Assembly (NCBI RefSeq): GCF_963921235.1 | Contig: NC_086114.1 | Span: 44,888,001 to 44,952,000 of the forward strand | Direction of reading: 5' to 3' | DNA: 64,000 bases | From: Mobula hypostoma | Lineage: Eukaryota | In this document: positions 11,836 to 33,254 of the stretch, piece by piece | Layout of the letters: each line of letters begins with the position of its first letter | Position numbering within the stretch: the stretch's first letter is position 1 | The notes under the pieces: model-generated | Database searches by the model: none | The model's input: the letters and a program-made list of their open reading frames with translations, nothing else | Told to the model about the DNA's origin: nothing | Made by a program: the position numbers and the translations under genes

Positions 11836-12936
11836 TATATGGTCAGTGCAGGCTCAGTGGGGCACAGGGCCTGAGTCTGTGCAGTACATCTTTAAATTAT
11901 ATAAAATATGAGTGCAAATCATACTTTGAAAGGGCTACATTTGCTTAGTTAGTAAAGAGTACCTGCACAAACAACATCTTTTACCTCTGGAATACACTTC
12001 AAAGCTAATAAATTAGCTTTCAAGGAGTGCAGTCACTCTTGTTGCAAAGGAAAATATAAAGGGACAAAGCAAGATGCCATAAGCAAAAATCATGTCATTA
12101 ATATGATCCATAGCCTTCCTCCATCTGCAATAGTTTACCTTCCTCTTAACTTCTTTGCATTCTGCAGCCTGGTTGACTGGTGTTCAAAGGTGTTCCACAG
12201 CACAGAAACAGGCCCTTTGGCCCATTGATACAATGCTGATCATCAAGCCCCCATTTGCACCAATCTTATACAAATCCTATTTAATTTTCCTGATATTTCT
12301 ATCAACTGGCCTCAGCTTCTACCAATCACTAGGGGCAATATACAGTGATCAGAAAATCCATGTTTGGACTACAGAATGTATCTAGAGCACCCAGAGGGAA
12401 GCACAATTTCACAAAGAGTATGTGCCAACCCCATATAGACTGCAGCAAAGATCAGGATTGAACTTGAATCACTGGTGCTGTGAGACAGCAGCTCCACTAG
12501 CTGTGCCAACTGTGCTGTCCTTTTTGATGGTACAGCACAGACCAGTTGAACGTAACATCAACAAGTTACTAAACAGGTACTGGTATGTTGGGTTTTATAC
12601 AATTGCTTTTATATTTATATCTATTATGTTCTAATGCTCATTGTATTTTTATGCTGCATCGGATTTGAAGTAACAAACATTTCATTCTCTTTTACACTTG
12701 TACTGAAGAATGGCAGTAAACAATCTTGAATCTTGAATCTGTCCTTCACAGTACCAGAGACAGCAAGAACCTCAACATGAGGTGACACTTCCTTGCACAA
12801 CTTACTCAGAACGTAGCACATTACAGCACAGTACAGGCCCTTCGGCCAAAGATGTTGTGCCTGTCGTTATTTTGGGATCTATCCCACAGCTGGCCACTAG
12901 AAGCCCTCAATGTTCTTCTGGTCTCTAAACATTCTA

Positions 12937-13403
12937 AGGCCCAATTTATACTTCTGCGTCAAATGTACACCGTAGGTACCGCATACCCTACGCCGTAGGG
13001 TGACGTGCACCTCCCCAAAAATGTAACTCACACGTCGCGACGACGCAGTCCGTAACAACTGTGATTGGTCCACTTGACAGCATCGCATTTCCTCCTACGC
13101 ATTCCAGTTGCTTTTCTCTGCCATGTCTGTACACTCATGCGAAATAAGTGGTTGGAGACGATGAACCAAATCGTCAAATCTACCTGCCAACATCCGAAAA
13201 TATTTGAAATGCATTTCCTCGTCCATGTCTCTCATGAAGAAACTCAACACAGTGGCATAGAAACCCCACCGTCAGCTAGCATTTTGGCGGTGAATTACAG
13301 AGCGACGCAGACACAACTACACATGTTCGCTACGGCATAGGGCTGCGCAAAAGTACAAGTCAGGCCTACGGCGTAGCCCGTACGCGCAAGTATAAATCAG
13401 CCT
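12937..13403. mobile_element. MITE, probably PIF/Harbinger-like, inside the 5' LTR
   Basis: TIRs aggcccaatttatacttctgcgt / acgcgcaagtataaatcagcct flanked by TA(A); absent from the 3' LTR; CpG-rich. Confidence 0.75.
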
Positions 13404-13817
13404 TAAGCCTGCTGTGTTACTTGTATGGGAATTGACAACACCTGTGCCTAGATATTCTAGTTAAGATGTGTGAATTATGCTGTTCTTTGCTCAGTCGTTG
13501 AGCCAACACTTGCTAGAGAGCCTGTCTTGTATCCAGCGCTGTATTCCTTTTGAGTGTATTTTTGCCCCACCCTTGCCCTACTATTTATTTGTACTTTGGA
13601 CCTGTTTTACTTTAGAACTTTGAATTCAGTCTATTGTGTTTTTGGATCTGCTTGCCTGCTTCTTTTAACTCCTGTTTTTGTTATATTGAACCACTGCCTG
13701 GGTTCTGATTTGGATTATTGCCTTTGTTTTGGAACTTTGCTATCTGGTAGAGTACCTGTCTGAATACTCATTCTGACCTCCTGTGTGATCTTGGTACCTG
13801 GGTTCATTTCTCGCTCA

Positions 13818-13886
13818 GCCCCTTGGGTACAGTGGTAAAGTTCTGGACTGCCATGCCGGAGACCTGGGTTCAAGACCAGCCAGGAC
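13818..13886 (+). ncRNA. tRNA-Gly(GCC)-like module in LTR U5 (second copy 17446-17506)
   Basis: GTACAGTGGTAAAGTTCTGGACTGCCATGCCGGAGACCTGGGTTCAAGACCAG aligns by eye with vertebrate tRNA-Gly-GCC; A and B boxes present. Confidence 0.65.
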
Positions 13887-15384
13887 TGACAATAAGACTG
13901 GGCCAAAGTGATGAACCCAGTGGAGACAAGCCATCCCGACTCAGAACTGTCTGATGCTGACTGCCTCTTGACTGTGATGGCCAGTCACGGGGCTACCACG
14001 GATCAACACGAGCAGGCCTAAGCAAAGCATGAGCAGATGCTAGGCCAGATCCACTGCAGGTTCTCTCAGCACACCAGCAACCTCTATCGCCAGTCCCTGC
14101 CCTGACAACCTTGCCTAGTACATTTGCGCCCCCCCCCCCCCGGGGTCCTCTTTCCCCTCCTGCTTCATCTGCCTCGCTGGGTCCTCCTAGTCCACTGATT
14201 TAGGGGTTTGAGCTATATCTTCCAGCCCGCCCTCCCAGTAATATGATGGTACTCAGGGGAATGCCCAGGATTTCTCACCCAGTGTTTCCCTACCCTTGAA
14301 CTCCAGCCGAGTGCCTTTCCCACTAAGCAATCCCGCATGGCGTACATCATCAGTCTACTTGCCGGAAAAGCACTTGCCTGAACCTCTGCCATCTGCCAAC
14401 CGCAGGGTCCTATTTGCTCCAGTTATCAGCTCTTCATCAACGAAATGAAGAAAGTTTTTGATCAAACTGACGGTGGTCACGAAGCAGGCAAACAGCTTCT
14501 CTGTTTTTGCCAGAGTAGTCTTTCTGTAACTGACTATGCCATCAAGTTTGTACCCTCACAGCAGAGAGTTGTTAGAATCCTGAGGCACTCATTGCCACCT
14601 TTCAACATGCCTTTCAGATGTCATCAAGGATGAGCCTGCATCCTGAGAAGATCAAAGCTCTTAATGACAGTTATGTTATTTATTTTAAACAATGAACAAC
14701 AAACTGGACTTGGTAGTTTATCCTTAGAATAGCTTCAGATTTACTTCCATTTAAATTTCAGTGCGCACATGTTGTTGTCACTAGGCAAAAAAATTGCACA
14801 GTATAAGATTTTTGTGCACAATGGTTATTACAAATTAGAGGGAACAACTGGTTTGCCCACCTTCATGGTCTGCCAACTGCTGGATTAATGGATGGCTCCA
14901 TTACTTGGTGGGCTGGGAGGGATATGACCCAGAAGAATGTTCCTGGGTCCCAGCTCAGGACATACCGGGAATTGATTCGGGACTTCCGTTGTCAACCTAA
15001 CCATCCTTGTGGGTTGGGGGTGGGGTGGGGGGAGTTGCAGTCCTGTCAGGGCTTTGAGGTCCATCTTACAGTTGGCCACAAGAAGCCCTCAGTGGGCTTC
15101 TAGTTTCTAAACTTTCTAGCCTTGCTGTGTTACTTGTATGGGAATTGACTACACCTATGCCTAATTATTCTGAGTATTTAAGCTTTGTGAATTGTGCTGT
15201 TCTTTATTCAGACTTTGAACCAAGACTTGATAGTGTGCTTCTCTTGTAATCCAGTGTTGTATACCTCGACACTGTTTTATTCCCCCTTGTTCAATCCCTT
15301 CCCACTTATGTTCCTGACACTTCTCGCGCTCTGGATTTTTTCAATGATTTTAAGTTTCCTGGCCCCCACCGCCTTATTTTCGCC

Positions 15385-16750
15385 ATGGATGTCCAGTTCC
15401 TATATACCTCCATCTCCCACCAGCAAGGTCTCAAAGCTCTCCGCTTTTTTTTGGACTCCAGACCTAACCAGTTCCCCTCTACCTCCACTCTGCACTGTCT
15501 ATCGGAATTAGTCCTTACTCTCAATAATTTCTCCTTTGGCTCCTCCCACTTCCTCCAAACTAAAGGTGTAGCTATGGGCACCCGTATGGGTCCCAGCTAT
15601 GCCTGCCTTTTTGTTGGCTTTATGGAGCAGTCCATGTTCCAAGCCTATACTGGTATCCGTCCCCCTCTTTTCCTTCGCTACATCGACGACTGCATTGACG
15701 CTGCTTCCTGCATGCATGCTGAGCTCGTTGACTTCATTAACTTTTCCTTAAACTTTCACCATGCCCTCAAATTTACCTGGTCCATTTCTGACACCTCCCT
15801 CCCCTTTCTTGATCTTTCTGTCTCTATCTCTGGAGACAGCTTATCTACTGATGTCTACTATAAGCCTACTGACTCTCACAGCTACCTTGACTTTTCCTCT
15901 TCCCACCCTGTCTCTTGCAAAAACGCCATCCCCTTCTCGCAATTCCACCGTCTCTGCCGCATCTGCTCTCAGGATGAGGCCTTTCATTCCAGGACGAAGA
16001 AGATGCCTTCCTTTTTTAAAGAAAGGGGCTTCCCTTCCTCCGCCATCAACTCTGCTCTCAAACGCATCTCTCCCATTTCACGCACAGTTGCTCTCACCCC
16101 ATCCTCCTGCCACCCCACTAGGAATAGGGTTCCCCTTGTCTTCACCTACCACCCCACAAGCCTCTGGGCCCAACATATAATTCTCCATAAAATCCACCAC
16201 CTCCAATGGGATCCCACCACCAAGCACATCTTTCCCTCCCCCCCTTTTCTGCTTTCCGCAGGGATTTCTCCCTATGCGATTCCCTTGTCCATTCGTTTCC
16301 CCCGCCCCACCCCTTTCCACCGATCTCCCTCCGGGCACTTACCCTTGTAAGCGGAACAAGTGCTACACATGCCCTTACACTTCCTCCCTTACCACCATTC
16401 AGGGCCCCAGACAGTCCTTCCAGGTGAGGCAACACTTCACCTGTGAGTCAGCTGGGGTGATATACTGCTTTCTGTGCTCCCGATGTGGCCTTCTATATAT
16501 TGTTGAGACCCGACGCAGACTGGGAGATCATTTCACTGAACACCTACGCTCTGTCCGCCAGAGAAAGCAGGATCTCCCAGTGGCCACACATTTTAATTCC
16601 ACATCCCATTCTCATTCTGATATGTCTATCCATGGCCTCTTCTACTGTCAAGACGAAGCCACATTCAGGTTGGAGGAACAACAACTTATGTTCCGTCTGG
16701 GTAGCCTCCAACCTGATGGTATGAGCATTGACTTCTCTAACTTCCATTAA
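15385..16750 (+). pseudogene. PLE RT + GIY-YIG endonuclease ORF, frameshifted
   Basis: Protein continues across three frames (ORFs 15385, 16206, 16274), with shifts in pyrimidine homopolymer tracts near 16245 and 16300; ends DFSNFH*. Confidence 0.9.
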
Positions 16751-17079
16751 TGCCCTTCCTCCCCTTCTTACCCCACCCCTTATTGTATGTATGTATGTAT
16801 GTATTTATTTTTTTATTTCCCCCTTTTATTTCTCTCTCTCTGTCCCTCTCAGAATAACTCCTTCCCTGCTTTCCATCTTCCTTTGGTGCTCCCCTCCCCC
16901 TTTCTTTCTCCCTAGGCCTCCCGTCCCATGACCCTCTCCCTTCTCCAGTCTGGTATCCTTTTTACTAATCATCTTTCCAGCTGTTGGCTCCATCCCTCCC
17001 ACTCCTGTCTTCTCCTATCATTTCGGATCTCTCCCTCCCCCTCCCACTTTCAAATCTCTTACTATCTCTTCTTTCAGTT

Positions 17080-17115
17080 AGTCCTGACGAAGGGTGTCAG
17101 CCCGAAACGCCGACT
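17080..17115 (+). ncRNA. Minimal hammerhead ribozyme motif (cleavage triplet mutated to GCC)
   Basis: agtc-CTGACGA-agggtgtcagccc-GAAA-cgcc-gact. Confidence 0.65.
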
Positions 17116-17789
17116 GTACTTCTTCCTATGGATGCTGTCTGGCCTGCAGCGTTCCACCAGCATTTTGTGTGTGTGTTGCTTGTATTCTTTTTGAGTGTTT
17201 TTGACCTTGCTTTGCTATTTTGTTTTGTATTTTGAACCTGTTTTACTTTAGAGCTTTGGTACTAGTTTTTGGAATTGCTTGCCTGCTGCTTTTTGACTCC
17301 TGTTTTTATTATATTGAATCACAGCCTAGCCTTCTGATTTGGATTATTGCCTTTATTTTTGGCAAAATATCTAGAAGAAATAGCTGTCTGAATACTCATT
17401 CTGGCCTCCTGTGTGATCTTGGCACCTGGGTTCATTTCTCACTCTGCCCCTTGGGTACAGTGGTAGAGTTCCAGACTCCCATACCTGGGTTCAAGCCCAG
17501 ACAGGCCTGAAAGTGCCACCCTTTTAACCAACTTAACCAAGCAGTCTGGAGGTGGAGGGCTCTGCATGACCTGTAAGGAAATGTTTTTAGTGTTATTTAC
17601 TGCTGGGGTCCTGAGGGAGCAGGTAGATGGGTTTCACCCTCCCACACTCTATGCCATGAGGAGGGAACACTGCCAGAGGAAGAGAGTCAAGGAAGCCATT
17701 AAGGGAGAAGGGTCATTCTCCAAGACCTCCTCAGATGAAGGTTCCTTCTGCCTTCCTCAGGATTCCTCATATTCTGCTCAAGGCTCCTT

Positions 17790-18910: not shown

Positions 18911-21422
18911 GTAGTCTGGGAACAGTACAGCTATGTTTTGTAATCCCTAAAATATAAAATTAATTGGAAGGAAAACAAAGGAGTCTGAAGTGCAAGTTTA
19001 ACTTTGTATTTACTTTAAGTGAGGTGCACACTTATCATGTGGTAGCATCATGACGTATGCAATACACTTACTTTTACATATACAGTAATCCATAATTATT
19101 TAAACAAACAAAGAATGTTTAATCAACATCTTAAATACACAACATTACTCCCTGCTTAACTATGAACTACAACTCAATAGAGGATACATCTCAACTAAAT
19201 ACACCGTATACTAAATTTACAGCTGCTATACACAGACATCCACAGCAAAGTAAATCTTTAAATGTCCCATTCAGGCCTAAAGATTTAATCACTGTGGAGG
19301 CTTTCCTACTCTTGTGGGATAATGTCTTTCCTGACAAGGGGTGGATGGGGAGGTCACTCTGAGACTTGCAGCTAAGAAACAATCTCATGTTCTCTGTGGT
19401 GGTTGTAAGAGTTGACTCTGAGACTGCAGGAAGTGGTTCTGATAGCAGTAGCCAACCTTTTTCTCTAGCAATTGACACTGCTGTCCTCAAATGATCGAAT
19501 GTTGTCTCCAGATGATATCAGATACAAACTCCACTGTGTATGAGAGTGGTCCCGTTCTGTCCGTAATCTTTCTGAGTAGTCGCTCCCCAGAACTGCTTGT
19601 CCAGCAGCAGAACATTGAACCTCCTTGTTTGAGGAGCCTTCGATTTGTCTCAGATGTTTGTCCTGCATACTCTTTCTGAGACTGGGTTTGAGGAGATCCA
19701 AGCGTGAAAGCAAGGGACGACCCAGGAACAGCATAGCTGGTTTGTTGGTTGTGGATTGTGCTGCATTGTGATGAACAATGAGGAGCTTGAGCTTCTGATT
19801 TCAGTGTCAGTGTAGTGTGTTCTGTTGACTTCTTTAGACTCTGGACAAACCTTTCCACCAAGCCATTTGCAGTTGGGTGATACGGTGCAAATACATATGT
19901 CTTATTCCATTCATTTTTAGGAATGACTGAAACTGTTCCACAACAAACTAAGGTTTATTGTTACTGATTCAGTATTCTGGAACACTAGTCCTTGAGAAGA
20001 GGTCTCTCAACTCATCAACAGTGTATGAGGCTGTGGTGGAGGCTATTGGGAACACTTCTGGCCACTTTGTAGCTGCATCCACTATTACTAAGATATTTGT
20101 GCCCAAGAATGGTCTCGCAAAATCTACATGAAACCTCTGCCAGGGCAATGCAGGCCATTCTCAGGAATGGAGAGGCTCTGCTCTTGGCGCCTTCTGGACA
20201 TGTTCGCATCCTAAGCAGTGCATGGCAAGCTGCTCGATCTGCTGGACTATTCCAGACTACCAGACAAAGCTTTGAACCAATGCTTTAATTTTGACCATGC
20301 CTAGATGACCGGCATGTAGCTCCTCCAACACTTTAGCTCTCAGCTTGGATGGTACAACAACTCTCAATCCCCACATAATGCTACCTCTGTCAAGGGCAAG
20401 TTCACCCTAGCACTATTAAAAATGTTGGAATTGGAGTTTCTGCTGCATATTCCAGCCACTTTGGGTGGCCAGGTAGTCCTGACAGTCCACTTTGCCAAAG
20501 TGTTTTCCTCCAGAAAGATTTGCAAAGATATCCTTTGTGTGAGGCATTTTCATTTAATGCTATTTTTCCCTTGATATGTTTGAATTTTCCAATGCCATCC
20601 TTGAACAATGCTGTGGCATCATCCAGTAACTTTCTTAATTTGCTTTTATTTGGCTATTTTGTTGGGGATGTAGATTGCAAATGGTCAATGGATCTCCAAT
20701 CAAGTTGTAGTTTCCTCCATCAATCACATCCCCTCCTATTTTTACCACATACAAGCCCAATGTGGCTTGTCGATTGTTGTATTTCACTGTTACAAATGTC
20801 ATTCTCACATGGTTTCTTTTTTCCAGTATAAGTTCTTAGATGGGATATCTGCAAGCTTTATTTAGAATCTTTGAAATGTCATTCAAACTCATTCTGTAGA
20901 ATGACTGAAACAGCTGAATAAGCGTCCAATTCCATTTTAATTAATTTGTCATTCACTTCTGGTGTAAGCTATATTGCTTGTCTCTTGTTAGTTTTCACAT
21001 AGTAAATCTCAAGGCTACCAGTTCACTGCCACTCTCATCATTATATGATATTCATCTACAGCTTGCAGATTAGAGCTCTTTTTGGAAGTGTAACTTGACT
21101 TTTTATCTTTATGTCTTCCTGTGCAGTCCATTTACTTCTGTCTGCCCGACATGCTGTTGGTATATGTCCGACTCTGTTGCATTTTCACATTTAAATCTGC
21201 ATTGGTCTGGTGCATTTGAGCCCCTACCACAATGGTGACGCAATTTGTTCAGACAGGTCCATTTCTGTTTAGACGTTGCAATTTTGTTTACACCCACTTT
21301 CATTCCTGACTGCAAGTCAATTGTAAACACGCGGAATTCTGCAGATGCTGGAAATTCAAGCAACACACACCAAAGTTGCTGGTGAACGCAGCAGGCCAGG
21401 CAGCATCTCTAGGAAGAGGTAC

Positions 21423-21458
21423 AGTCGACGTTTCGGGCCAAGACCCTTCATCAGGACT
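21423..21458 (-). ncRNA. Minimal hammerhead ribozyme motif, core intact
   Basis: Minus strand: agtc-CTGATGA-agggtcttggccc-GAAA-cgTC-gact. Confidence 0.8.
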
Positions 21459-22502
21459 AACTGAAGGAAGAGCTAGTAAGAGATTTGAAAGTGGGAGGGG
21501 GAGGGGGAGATCCGAAATGATAGGAGAAGACAGGAGGGGGAGGGATGGAGCCAAGAGCTGGACAAGTGATTGGCAAAAGGGATATGAGAGGATCATGGGA
21601 CAGGAGGCCCAGGGAGAAGGAAAAGGGGGAGGGGGGAAAAACCCCCAGAGGATGGGCAAGGGGTATAGTCAGAGGGACAGAGGGAGAAAAAGGAGAGCGA
21701 GAGAAAGAATGTGTGTATATAAATAAATAACGGATGGGGTACGAGGAGGAGGTGGGCCATTAGCGGAAGTTAGGGAAGTCAACGTTCATGCCATCAGGTT
21801 GGAGGTTACCCAGACGGAATATAAGGTGTTGTTCCTCCAACCTGAGTGTGGCTTCATCTTTATAGTAGAGGAGGCCGTGGATAGACATGTCAGAATGGGA
21901 ATGGGATGTGGAATTAAAATGTGTGGCTCCTGGGAGATCCTGCTTTCTCTAGCAGACAGAGAGAGACTGGGATGTGTGGCAGACTGGGAGATCATTTTGC
22001 TGAACACCTACGCTCTGTCCACCAGAGAAAGCAGGATCTCCCAGTGGCCACACATTTTAATTCCACATCCCATTCCCATTCTGATATGTCTATCCACGGC
22101 CTCCTCTACTGTAAAGATGAAGCCACACTCACGTTGGAGGAACAACACCTTATATTCTGTCTGGGTAGCTTCCAACCTGATGGCATGAACATTGACTTCT
22201 CTAACTTCCGCTAATGCCCCACCTCCCCCTCGTACCCCATCCGTTATTTATTTATATACACACATTCTTTCTCTCTCTCACTCTGTCCCTCTGACTATAT
22301 CCCTTGCCCATCCTCTGGGGTTTTCCCCCTTCCCCCTTTTCCTTCTCCCTGGGCCTCATGTCCCATGATCCTCTCATATCCCTTTTGCCAATCACCTGTC
22401 CAATTCTTGGCTCCATCCCTCCCCCTCCTGTCTTCTCCTATCATTTTGGATCTCCTCCTCCCCCTCCCACTTTCAAATCTCTTACTAGCTCTTCCTTCAG
22501 TT

Positions 22503-22538
22503 AGTCCTGACGAAGGGTTTCGACACGAAACGTCGACT
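22503..22538 (+). ncRNA. Minimal hammerhead ribozyme motif, stem II weakened
   Basis: agtc-CTGACGA-agggtttcgacac-GAAA-cgTC-gact. Confidence 0.7.
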
Positions 22539-23644
22539 GTACCTCTTCCTAGAGATGCTGCCTGGCCTGCTGCGTTCACCAGCAATTTTGATGTGTGTTG
22601 CAAGTCAACTGTGTTTCTGTCTGCTGTTTCCATTGACACAGCAATCTCAACTGCTCATTTAAAGGTAAGTTGGGCTTCAGTTATGAACCATTTTTGAATG
22701 CTTTCTTGTAAGATTCCAAAAACTAAATGATCTCTCAGTGCATCCCATTATTGAACTGACAGATCTCAGACAATCTCTTCAATTGAGTCACGTACGCTGA
22801 AATGGACTCCTCTTCCTTTGGATTCCACTTATGAAATCTAAACTATTCAGTAATTAACAATAGTTTTGCTTCTAAATGTTTCTGCATTATTTCACAATAT
22901 CAGTAAAAATCATTTCTGCTGGTTTGGTTGGAACAGTCAAAAACCTAAGAAAGATGGTTGCCTTTACACCCAATGCACTCAGTAAAACTGGTCCATGTAT
23001 GTCATTGGTTATTCCATTTGCTTTAAGATACGGCTCAATTCACTCTGTACACAATATCAGTTATCTGTTGTGCAATGGAATGTTCAATCTTTCTGATGTA
23101 GCCAGCTATTCTGCTCTTTTTTTTTGTTATTACTATCACCCTGTACTCACTATTTGTGAATCTGGGAATTCTGTTTTTAGCCTTTTTTAAAAACACGTTA
23201 GTGTTTTTCCTTCCAAAGGACAAATGCTGTGCTTTTTTTTTTAAACTCAATTATCTTCCTTGTTTCCACAGGTAGGTAGCCACCTCCAGTTCATTTTAAA
23301 AGTTCCTCATCATCACTGTTATGGTTTGTAATTCCCGTAACATAAAATTAATTAAAAGGAAAACAATGGAGTCTGAAATGCGAGTCTAATTGAGGCACAC
23401 ACATATCACATGGTACCATCATGACATATGCAATTCACTTAATCAAAACATATTTACAGGATTACTCAAATATTATTGAAATATTAAATACACAACAGTT
23501 ATTCAACTGGCTGATTCCCAGCAGTTAATCACGGAGTCAAAGAGTTATTTATGCTTCCACATTCCTTGGTGTTTCCCAGGGTTAGCAGTTTCAGGTCCAA
23601 TATCCCCCTGCCAGCCTTCTAGTCGTCCTGTAGATGACTGTCGA

Positions 23645-31870: not shown

Positions 31871-32179
31871 TATTCTAGATGCTCAGATTAAATACAGAAA
31901 ACCATGGACATTCATAAAGTTCCTCCAAAAACGATCTTTTTGACCATTTCTCCATATAGTTTCATATGCAAGAAGACTTATAAAATGGGCACAATCAAAA
32001 CGTGTTGGCATGGAAACCCGTATTCATGTAACATGATCATGTTTCTCTTTTCCAGGAACTGGAGGTTAGCCTTCAAAACAATGATGGAAACAACAAAAAA
32101 AATCAACTGTGTTAATTTTAATAATGATGATAATAATAATAATTTTAATAATAATGAAACTGGAATAGGCTTTATTCCC

Positions 32180-32763
32180 AAACAACAGGAATTCTGCAGA
32201 TGCTGGAAATTCAAGCAACACACATCAAAGTTGCTGGTGAACGCAGCAGGCCAAGCAGCATCTGTAGGAAGAGGTGCAGTCGACGTTTCAGGCCGAGACC
32301 CTTCATCAGGACTAACTGAAGGAAGAGTGAGTAAGGGATTTGAAAGTTGGAGGGGGAGGGGGAGATCCAAAATGATAGGAGAAGACAGGAGGGGGAGGGA
32401 TACCTCTTGCCCATCCTCTGGGTCCCCCCCCCCCGGTCTTTCTTCCCGGACCTCCTGTCCCATGATCCTCTCCATCCTCTGGGTCCCCCCCCTCCCCCGG
32501 TCTTTCTTCCCGGACCTCCTGTCCCATGATCCTCTCGTATCCCCTTTTGCCTATCACCTGTCCAGCTCTTGGCTCTATCCCTCCCCCTCCTGTCTTCTCC
32601 TATCATTTTGGATCTCCCCCTCCCCCTCCAACTTTCAAATCCCTTACTCACTCTTCCTTCAGTTAGTCCTGACAAAGGGTCTCGGCCTGAAACGTCGACT
32701 GCACCTCTTCCTACAGATGCTGCTTGGCCTGCTGTGTTCACCAGCAACTTTGATGTGTGTTGC
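32180..32763. mobile_element. Fold-back PLE terminal insertion, about 585 bp
   Basis: Left arm 32180-32401 is inverted relative to the right arm; TSD atagg(c/t)tttattcc at 32165-32178 and 32764-32777; about 61-bp tandem duplication 32411-32535. Confidence 0.95.
32278..32313 (-). ncRNA. Minimal hammerhead ribozyme motif, core intact
   Basis: Minus strand: agtc-CTGATGA-agggtctcggcct-GAAA-cgTC-gact; the mirror copy at 32665-32700 has CTGACAA (core mutation). Confidence 0.8.
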
Positions 32764-33254
32764 ATAGGTTTTATTCCATTGGTTTTTCCAGTCACTCCAC
32801 CATTGTCACAATAGGCAGGTAAATGGGTAGGAGGGATATGTGGCTTGTAATGATGGAGGTCAAGTGATGAATGGACCCTGGAGATTGGCAAATCTACTCT
32901 GAATTGATTTGTCGACCACCACTCCTCAATTTGAAGCTCTTGATCACATTTCATGCTGTACAATATGTACCACTAGTGAGAATGAGTGAAGCTTCTGAAA
33001 TGACATGGGTGAATTGAGTTTCCCTCTGAAGCCACTCCTCTGTACCTTTCACCTGCTGCTAAGTTGGAACAGATCTACTTTGAGCCCAAACTCCCAATTA
33101 ATAAGGTTATTCCTGTCAATGACATGGGGAGGTGAAGAAAACGACTGTCCATTCAATTCACTTTCAAGCTCCTTGAGCTATAATAGTAAACAATGTATGT
33201 GCCTTTTAAGGAAACACATGAGTTACTAAGGCTAGAGGTGATTCAATCAAGCTG

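Follow-up and report, generated by a model that had tools for sequence, protein, structure and literature searches.

The window analyzed here, a 64,000-nucleotide stretch of the Mobula hypostoma genome, harbors a decayed Tf1/sushi-type chromovirus with a tRNA-derived module in each of its two long terminal repeats (LTRs). Judged by its sequence, the module at 13825-13886, which spans tRNA positions 8-72, is real and derived from tRNA, and a second copy lies at 17453-17507 in the 3' LTR. A homologous module occupies the same place in a second family of elements in this genome. The likeness of the module between the two families, amid LTRs that cannot otherwise be aligned, is the main evidence that it was retained while the elements were active. 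Tentatively, and at somewhat less than an even chance, we favor that the module was captured through template switching of the reverse transcriptase (RT), was kept as a DNA site for TFIIIC by way of its B box, and served neither as a tRNA nor as a primer.

Architecture of the element

The chromovirus occupies 12862-17512 and is bounded by 5-bp target-site duplications, the 5' one at 12857-12861 and the identical bases recurring at 17513-17517. All features given below for the window lie on the plus strand, with the exception of an insert in the 5' LTR to which no strand is assigned. The 5' LTR (12862-13891), of what we term family A, is 80-82% identical to the 3' LTR (15044-17512) in three blocks. 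Both are interrupted by later inserts; an uninterrupted family A LTR measures about 560-590 bp. The DNA-element-like insert of the 5' LTR (12936-13404, ends approximate, about 470 bp) is missing from the 3' LTR, has imperfect terminal inverted repeats with 33-nt arms that are 73% complementary, and is probably a non-autonomous DNA element. The 3' LTR is split by a 1.9-kb insert (15265-17180), an RT-bearing high-copy retroelement (RVT_1 E 0.0013, below cut-off) which we take to be Penelope-like. Related copies of the latter elsewhere in the window, at 21325-22609 and 32166-32771, are large inverted pairs, with arms of 285/267 nt (94-95% complementary) and 188 nt (98%). The host genome measures 3.5 Gb and is rich in LINE-like repeats.

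Along the 5' LTR, a decayed TATA-like box (13456-13465), found at the same place in family copies and better preserved in the 3' LTR (at 15175), represents the putative promoter. It is followed by the predicted self-primer, corresponding to the RNA 5' end (13485-13500), by the site of a poly(A)-signal-like word (13745-13756), decayed here and reading AATAAA or AGTAAA in other copies, and by a conserved U5 motif (13791-13808) with predicted pairing to the gag start region in a U5-leader stem. Beyond the module, the LTR closes with a terminal inverted repeat (att end, 13885-13891) that is the inverse of the first seven LTR bases in family copies. Downstream lie a primer-binding site of the self-priming type, complementary to the self-primer and with no TGG start (13892-13907), and a broken gag (13910-14650) with weak DUF4939 and Retrotrans_gag matches below cut-off and with 52% and 42% identity to the Gag proteins of sister chromoviruses (E 4e-14 and 6e-12). 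These are followed by a chromodomain remnant from the integrase end (14896-14970; PF00385, E 1.4e-7, 31.8 bits versus a cut-off of 25.1) and, 9 bases ahead of the 3' LTR, a polypurine tract recognized by its sequence (15011-15034). The window copy has lost most of pol. The order gag, PR, RT, RNase H, integrase is complete in the sister element L186, and the family A copy L049 retains pieces of RT and then RNase H, hence family A was coding. The proposal of the first-pass annotation that a tRNA-like sequence was captured and replicated within a chromovirus LTR is supported.

A tRNA-like module that decays with its LTR

The D arm with its A-box-like stretch (13825-13835), the anticodon arm (13843-13859) with the loop CTGCCAT (13848-13854) and the T arm (13864-13879) with the B box (13868-13876) were recovered where the first-pass annotation had placed them, as was the fully paired T stem of the 3' LTR, with all five pairs formed and a loop of 6 nt (17485-17500). 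In this second copy, whose A-box-like stretch is at 17453, seven bases are gone from the anticodon arm and the variable loop. The outer boundaries required revision: the tRNA-like core comprises only 13825-13879 (tRNA positions 8-65), the final seven bases belong to the inverted repeat of the LTR, and the 3' LTR ends at 17512.

Comparison of the window module with the tRNA-Gly(GCC) gene of the same genome yielded a score of 82, the best of 300 dinucleotide shuffles reaching 45 (z 13). An unbiased genome search with 13740-13960 returned 38 matches, namely 34 family LTRs and four ARAGORN-called tRNA-Gly(GCC) genes, the latter with 87% identity over 46 bases. Among 14 tRNA types from this genome, a sample of about half of all types from which a false tRNA-Pro call with an intron was excluded, Gly(GCC) scored highest in 23 of 24 independent family A copies. 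In the 53 columns that span D stem through T stem, the most frequent family A letter agrees with tRNA-Gly 45 times, as opposed to only 2/7 and 3/8 columns of the acceptor strands. The variable loop comprises four bases, as in the sampled Gly, Asp, Glu, Gln, His and Cys genes; most other tRNA types have longer variable loops.

Family A matches about 45 places in the genome, which is a lower bound. We recovered 33 loci, and 24 independent copies remained once nine segmental duplicates had been dropped (L006, L008, L010, L017, L018, L024, L025, L026 and L052); alignment A1 holds 20 of these 24, while A2 combines 15 family A copies with 18 copies of the second family, family B. Family A copies are 70-82% alike and mostly solo LTRs. 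Solo LTRs with their flanks are segmentally duplicated at G000:C9:74.06-74.31 Mb (at least 6 copies) and C12:17.0-17.9 Mb (at least 8). A 5-bp target duplication is present at the window element, L003 and L007; the other flanks are mostly decayed or ambiguous, two being readable as 6 bp. The first-pass annotation had raised the possibility of family members devoid of the module. None was found among 33 + 10 loci, where all copies with an intact LTR end carry the module or a deleted remnant of it.

The LTR-gag junction of the window element recurs in one contig under each of four other organism labels, from four studies, with 6, 19, 19 and 19 differences over about 250 bases. Since the junction is orthologous in all four, the insertion is older than the split of those organisms. 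Here, 7 of 74 module positions have changed, versus 12 of 177 beside it. Across copies, module decay is similar to that of the rest of the LTR. The inserted copies are without visible constraint, with departure rates of 0.099 versus 0.117 in family A (p 0.09) and 0.094 versus 0.106 in family B (p 0.20); none of the copies seen is alive, and their decay is neutral.

A second family with the same module

Family B was found via a weak match beside a distant relative, leading to a 5.9-kb element of the same layout (L135/L136, G000:C36:123933873-123939818, minus strand; further loci L217-L246). At least 117 candidate places were detected, 40 of which were scored and 32 examined. The module is homologous to that of family A and located at the same place, and the self-primer and primer site are also the same; the 5' LTR of the L135 element holds a shortened, decayed version of the module. 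The RT DNA of the two families is 62% identical, and they are separated by 0.78 changes per site on the RT tree, within which later decay amounts to about 0.11-0.12 per copy. In this tree, which holds elements of this genome only and from which L137 was left out as too short, A and B group together to the exclusion of 20 sister RT sequences, with support of 100/100 for a branch that consists of two decayed rows with long branches. Joining family A with its nearest sister group was rejected (p 0.001).

When nine 65-nt windows of the family A LTR were compared with family B, the module alone aligned (z 5.0; 0.1-1.5 for the others), with agreement in 49 of 61 module columns. Five departures from tRNA-Gly are common to both families (positions 12, 24, 29, 31 and 41), and the letters common to A and B at 12, 24 and in the stretch 67-72 are absent from every sampled tRNA there. 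Retention of the module while the rest of the LTRs lost alignable likeness argues for a TFIIIC site. Alternatively, it may have been a functionless passenger, arising from a single accidental capture at a loop of the priming structure that tolerated it and repeatedly overwritten from packaged host tRNAs or by swaps between A and B, which we regard as unlikely, yet worth serious consideration. The private letters at 12, 24 and 67-72 speak against such a passenger, as overwriting from tRNAs would erase them, and so does the unalignable remainder of the LTR. Congruent with a passenger are, on the other hand, the self-primer common to both families, the lack of constraint after insertion and the absence of the module from sister elements. 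Likewise, an 8-nt tandem repeat in the D-arm region of family B has lost one unit in 9 of 32 copies, with no subfamily formed: the deletion was considered as the mark of an active B subfamily and rejected, as it comes with no diagnostic columns and is scattered on the tree.

Mosaic make-up and proposed capture from host tRNAs

The likeness to tRNA-Gly(GCC) proposed initially stands for most of family A, but does not extend to the entire module. Over positions 27-56, family A agrees with Gly(GCC) at 26 of 29 positions and with Gln(TTG) at 20, whereas family B is Gln-like, agreeing with Gln(TTG) at 26 of 29 and with Gly(GCC) at 19. Positions 27-33 match tRNA-Gln at 7/7 in both families. The anticodon is GCC in 16 of 24 family A copies and TTC in 20 of 32 family B copies. 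At positions 44-56, the commonest Gly-GCC variant of the sampled loci fits family A best, with 12/12 versus 10/12 for the standard form.

The module is thus a mosaic, which suggests repeated template switching onto host tRNAs. We infer at least two switches onto different tRNAs, because a single capture followed by drift explains the mosaic poorly. An over-extended copy of the primer is excluded, since it would run antisense, whereas the module is in sense orientation and lies 5' of the primer site. There is precedent for RT copying stretches of Gly, Asp or Glu tRNAs, 60-70 bases long, into the DNA of retroviruses (PMC12220202). The mosaic also shows that overwriting took place, which is in favor of a passenger. 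As a separate observation, the genome contains single-isotype tRNA gene clusters (Gly-GCC, Glu-TTC, Lys-TTT and His-GTG) at G000:C80:32.59-32.67 Mb, C82:11.95-12.07 Mb, C90:4.0-4.3 Mb and C5:116.3-116.9 Mb.

Boxes, arms and fold

The B box is intact in 13 of 18 family A and 20 of 31 family B copies, despite decay. A strict A box is found in none of 23 family A copies and in 9 of 18 decayed family B copies, and its T8 in 0/23 and 19/21, respectively. Family A has a T loop that is one base short, family B has lost two of five T-stem pairs (49-65 unpaired in 28/28 copies, 52-62 in 29/31), and pair 12-23 fails in both, the D stem having two G-U pairs and a mismatch. Kept in both families are the D-loop GG, four of five anticodon-stem pairs and the invariants 21, 32, 33, 37 and 48.

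Survival of the B box in both families while the canonical fold is lost is congruent with retention as a TFIIIC site. However, the B box coincides with the T loop and is present in any tRNA-derived stretch, the strict A box is gone throughout family A, and a pure DNA site needs neither the invariants outside the boxes nor the anticodon-stem pairs that are kept. Moreover, conservation between A and B is not significantly higher at the invariant positions (15/17) than at the others (34/44, p 0.48); the corresponding comparison of B with Gly (17/17 versus 25/40, p 0.002) is confounded by the Gln-like part of B. That a different feature is broken in each family is, again, what a passenger would be expected to display.

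A further source to consider is the head of a tRNA-derived SINE that inserted into an ancestral LTR and may or may not have driven Pol III transcription. Such heads are frequently hard to assign to one isotype, and the full A box in half of the decayed family B copies, along with the near-complete presence of T8, would suit a SINE head. Nevertheless, no SINE body, tail or target duplication was seen beside the module. A genome search with the module alone, the counts of such searches being lower bounds, placed 17 of 17 matches inside family LTRs, and a module profile search detected no free copy in 1.2 Mb of sampled loci. A four-T run within 60 bases downstream is present in only 3 of 24 family A copies. 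Considering this, an origin from a SINE appears quite improbable.

The covariance-model search advised in the first-pass annotation gave no significant score for any natural copy. ARAGORN made no call on the module, neither in the window nor at 30 + 33 loci, and RF00005, with a gathering score of 29, did not report the window copy and yielded only sub-threshold scores for L003 (15.1 bits) and two family B copies (14.3 and 19.5 bits). A functional tRNA gene was thus rejected, as no natural copy passes the ARAGORN or Rfam cut-off. A mascRNA-like match (10.9 bits, E 8.9) is at chance level, and the idea of 3'-end processing by RNase P was therefore dropped. The RNAalifold consensus fold of the module contains 0 pairs, and its folding z ranges from 1.3 to -1.4, a true tRNA-Gly gene likewise reaching just -1.4. 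Covariation across copies, also advised as a check, does not exceed shuffles within family A (313 of 500), as expected for copies that decay after insertion, and is marginal in the A+B alignment with two tRNAs included (36 of 500).

Predicted priming, U5 structure and RNA start

In Tf1/sushi elements, the primer is the 5' end of the element's own RNA, held in a three-duplex structure (PMC10085805, PMC4600332, PMC6317226). The primer site of the window has a longest match of 6 bases to any of the 14 tRNA types, and at six A/B primer sites we found no TGG start and at most 5-9 bases matching any of the sampled types. The self-primer at 13485-13500 is the best-pairing 16-nt LTR window over 20 copies, at -12.2 kcal/mol (mean -6.4, sd 2.2), while the pairing is weak and not significant in the single-copy energy test of the decayed window copy. 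The top-ranked partner window lies 25-30 nt behind the TATA-like box for one of two family A and three of four family B primer sites; for the more decayed L049 site, the self-primer window ranks 4.

The RNA start, predicted from this pairing and the TATA-like box, would be located about 30 nt behind the box and 340 nt upstream of the module. As the predicted RNA has to begin at the self-primer, the module is not supported as the promoter of the genomic RNA; this applies to the Pol III promoter initially envisaged, for which T8 is also absent throughout family A. The suggestion that the module serves as a priming structure fared no better, as the self-primer window pairs best with the primer site across 20 copies. 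Specifically, the module end pairs with the window primer site at -11.4 kcal/mol, at second rank, and does not figure among the top sites for L049, and the D-arm region ranks first at only one of four family B primer sites; both were rejected as primers.

The U5-leader stem of the window reaches -17.8 kcal/mol, with 0 of 200 shuffles as good, and also occurs with covarying letters in 10 sister elements, these being the 10 of 20 with LTR ends clear enough for comparison. Two duplexes of the three-duplex 'pretzel' structure were found, the self-primer and the U5-leader one. The LTRs of these 10 sisters end 29-38 nt after the U5 motif and those of family A 100-101 nt after it, hence the module is extra sequence, which we place in U5, presumably behind the poly(A)-signal-like word. 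The sisters (L170-L189) lack a tRNA module and display a clear self-primer along with U5-leader stems whose letters covary; a T-arm remnant considered in the U5 of L173, L175 and L185 was rejected, with 143-184 of 1000 shuffles as good. These sisters are young and high-copy (12,538 RT candidates), with LTR pairs that are 85-94% identical, and L172 (G000:C71:47017852-47027851) comprises two near-identical chromovirus units in tandem with a common LTR (93% over 2.8 kb).

The predicted fold places the module in the loop that separates the U5-leader stem from the primer site. Nine bases of the U5 motif (13798-13806) repeat in the module T arm (13864-13872), and the family A T arm is the second-best leader partner, at -12.7 versus -14.2 kcal/mol. 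Modeled in this manner, a tRNA-shaped RNA domain could recruit RT or Gag, or toggle the leader, a role that we deem unlikely. It would profit from the place of the module directly before the primer site and inside the predicted U5-leader stem, from the pairing rank of the family A T arm, from the four anticodon-stem pairs kept in both families and from C41, which in family A pairs with G29 within an otherwise Gly-like strand. On the other hand, the T stem is broken in B, the T loop is short in A and the D stem is poor; covariation is at shuffle level within A and marginal for A+B, and the T arm of family B is not among the top leader partners.

Proposed capture and possible retention as a TFIIIC site

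In the capture and TFIIIC-site reading that we favor, Pol II would transcribe the element RNA from the TATA-like box, and this RNA would self-prime like that of Tf1. U5 would then be the first stretch copied, and the nine-base likeness of its motif to the T arm of tRNA-Gly may have offered a landing place for the switching RT. With a tRNA-like stretch in place, further switches onto Gly and Gln tRNAs could have followed, giving rise to the mosaic, and strand transfer would have copied the module into both LTRs. We are least sure of a further point, that TFIIIC bound at each LTR end may help to keep the LTR promoter open. Chromodomain integrases are thought to favor heterochromatin, and a promoter kept open by TFIIIC would therefore suit the element. 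TFIIIC sites act as barriers in yeasts (PMC10530723). Inserted copies that show no constraint, and sister chromoviruses that are far more numerous without the module, speak against this reading.

Relation to known elements and significance

The earlier statement that this arrangement had not been described is correct in part: tRNA-derived sequence in LTRs is known from Helenus (TRIMp3; Kojima 2024, PMC10886601), though for non-coding mini-elements only. Helenus and families A and B alike carry a sense tRNA-derived stretch in both LTRs that is not the primer and is unlikely to be a working tRNA. In Helenus the boxes are conserved, and not the fold (PMC10886601), while A and B keep the B box and hold a strict A box in 0/23 and 9/18 copies. 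Helenus is furthermore non-coding and 311-1263 bp long, tRNA-primed (by the tRNA 3' end in vertebrates) and associated with 4-bp duplications in animals (PMC10886601), whereas A and B are coding chromoviruses of 5-6 kb, predicted to self-prime and to use a TATA-like Pol II promoter, and the window element has 5-bp duplications. The Gly/Gln mosaic and the defective A box of family A are additional differences. According to the Helenus report, autonomous partners are unlikely to have such LTR sequence, and 'not a few' LTRs in Repbase are similar to a portion of a tRNA, with only mini-elements followed up; a term search for 'Chondrichthyes' gave no occurrence in its supplement (PMC10886601). SINE insertion is the origin proposed for Helenus and Cassandra.

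With Tf1/sushi chromoviruses, the families share Gag, PR-RT-RNase H in members, a C-terminal chromodomain and TG...CA ends (PMC10085805, PMC4600332, PMC6317226, PMC3601003), as well as a primer site complementary to their own predicted 5' end and the U5-leader duplex of the 'pretzel'; they differ in that 60-70 nt derived from tRNA are added downstream of the U5 motif, ahead of the LTR end. Measured against Helenus, the element departs in three defining respects (size and coding capacity, primer type, duplication length), and it fits Tf1/sushi on the features tested. Cassandra and Ajax likewise have small-RNA-gene sequence in both LTRs, which is however 5S rRNA-derived and in non-coding elements, and Cassandra RNA starts at its Pol III promoter (PMC10886601), impossible for an A/B RNA that would have to begin with the self-primer. 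RT-copied tRNA-Gly in MMLV and HIV DNA, and tRNA-Asp/Glu in HITME recombination, similarly span 60-70 nt with the first bases missing (PMC12220202). Such copies arose as isolated events in the laboratory, some of them lying outside the LTR or disappearing afterwards, whereas the A/B module is fixed in U5 and inherited by two families.

More broadly, an autonomous, self-priming vertebrate chromovirus clade may have kept the module under selection across deep divergence, refreshed by recombination with different host tRNAs, and used it either as a TFIIIC insulator that it carries along or to replace in cis the primer tRNA that it does not use, a proposition that we find possible, if rather doubtful. 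No account of a tRNA module in the LTR of a coding chromovirus was found in the literature searched, Repbase and Butler et al. 2001 aside, the latter reportedly being the main description of vertebrate Tf1/sushi members. These considerations concern copies that, among those seen, are all dead and families that are small, with about 45 (A) and at least 117 (B) candidate places. In gene-less mini-elements, small-RNA-derived LTR modules are interpreted as Pol III promoters that yield a short RNA. This use is not available to a coding element of 5-6 kb, and its module would therefore have another job, as a TFIIIC site or as an RNA domain by the primer site. The finding also indicates a route to Helenus-type elements, by internal deletion and with no SINE needed. 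Finally, the Gly/Gln mosaic would represent a fixed, heritable record of an RT recombining with the tRNAs of its host.
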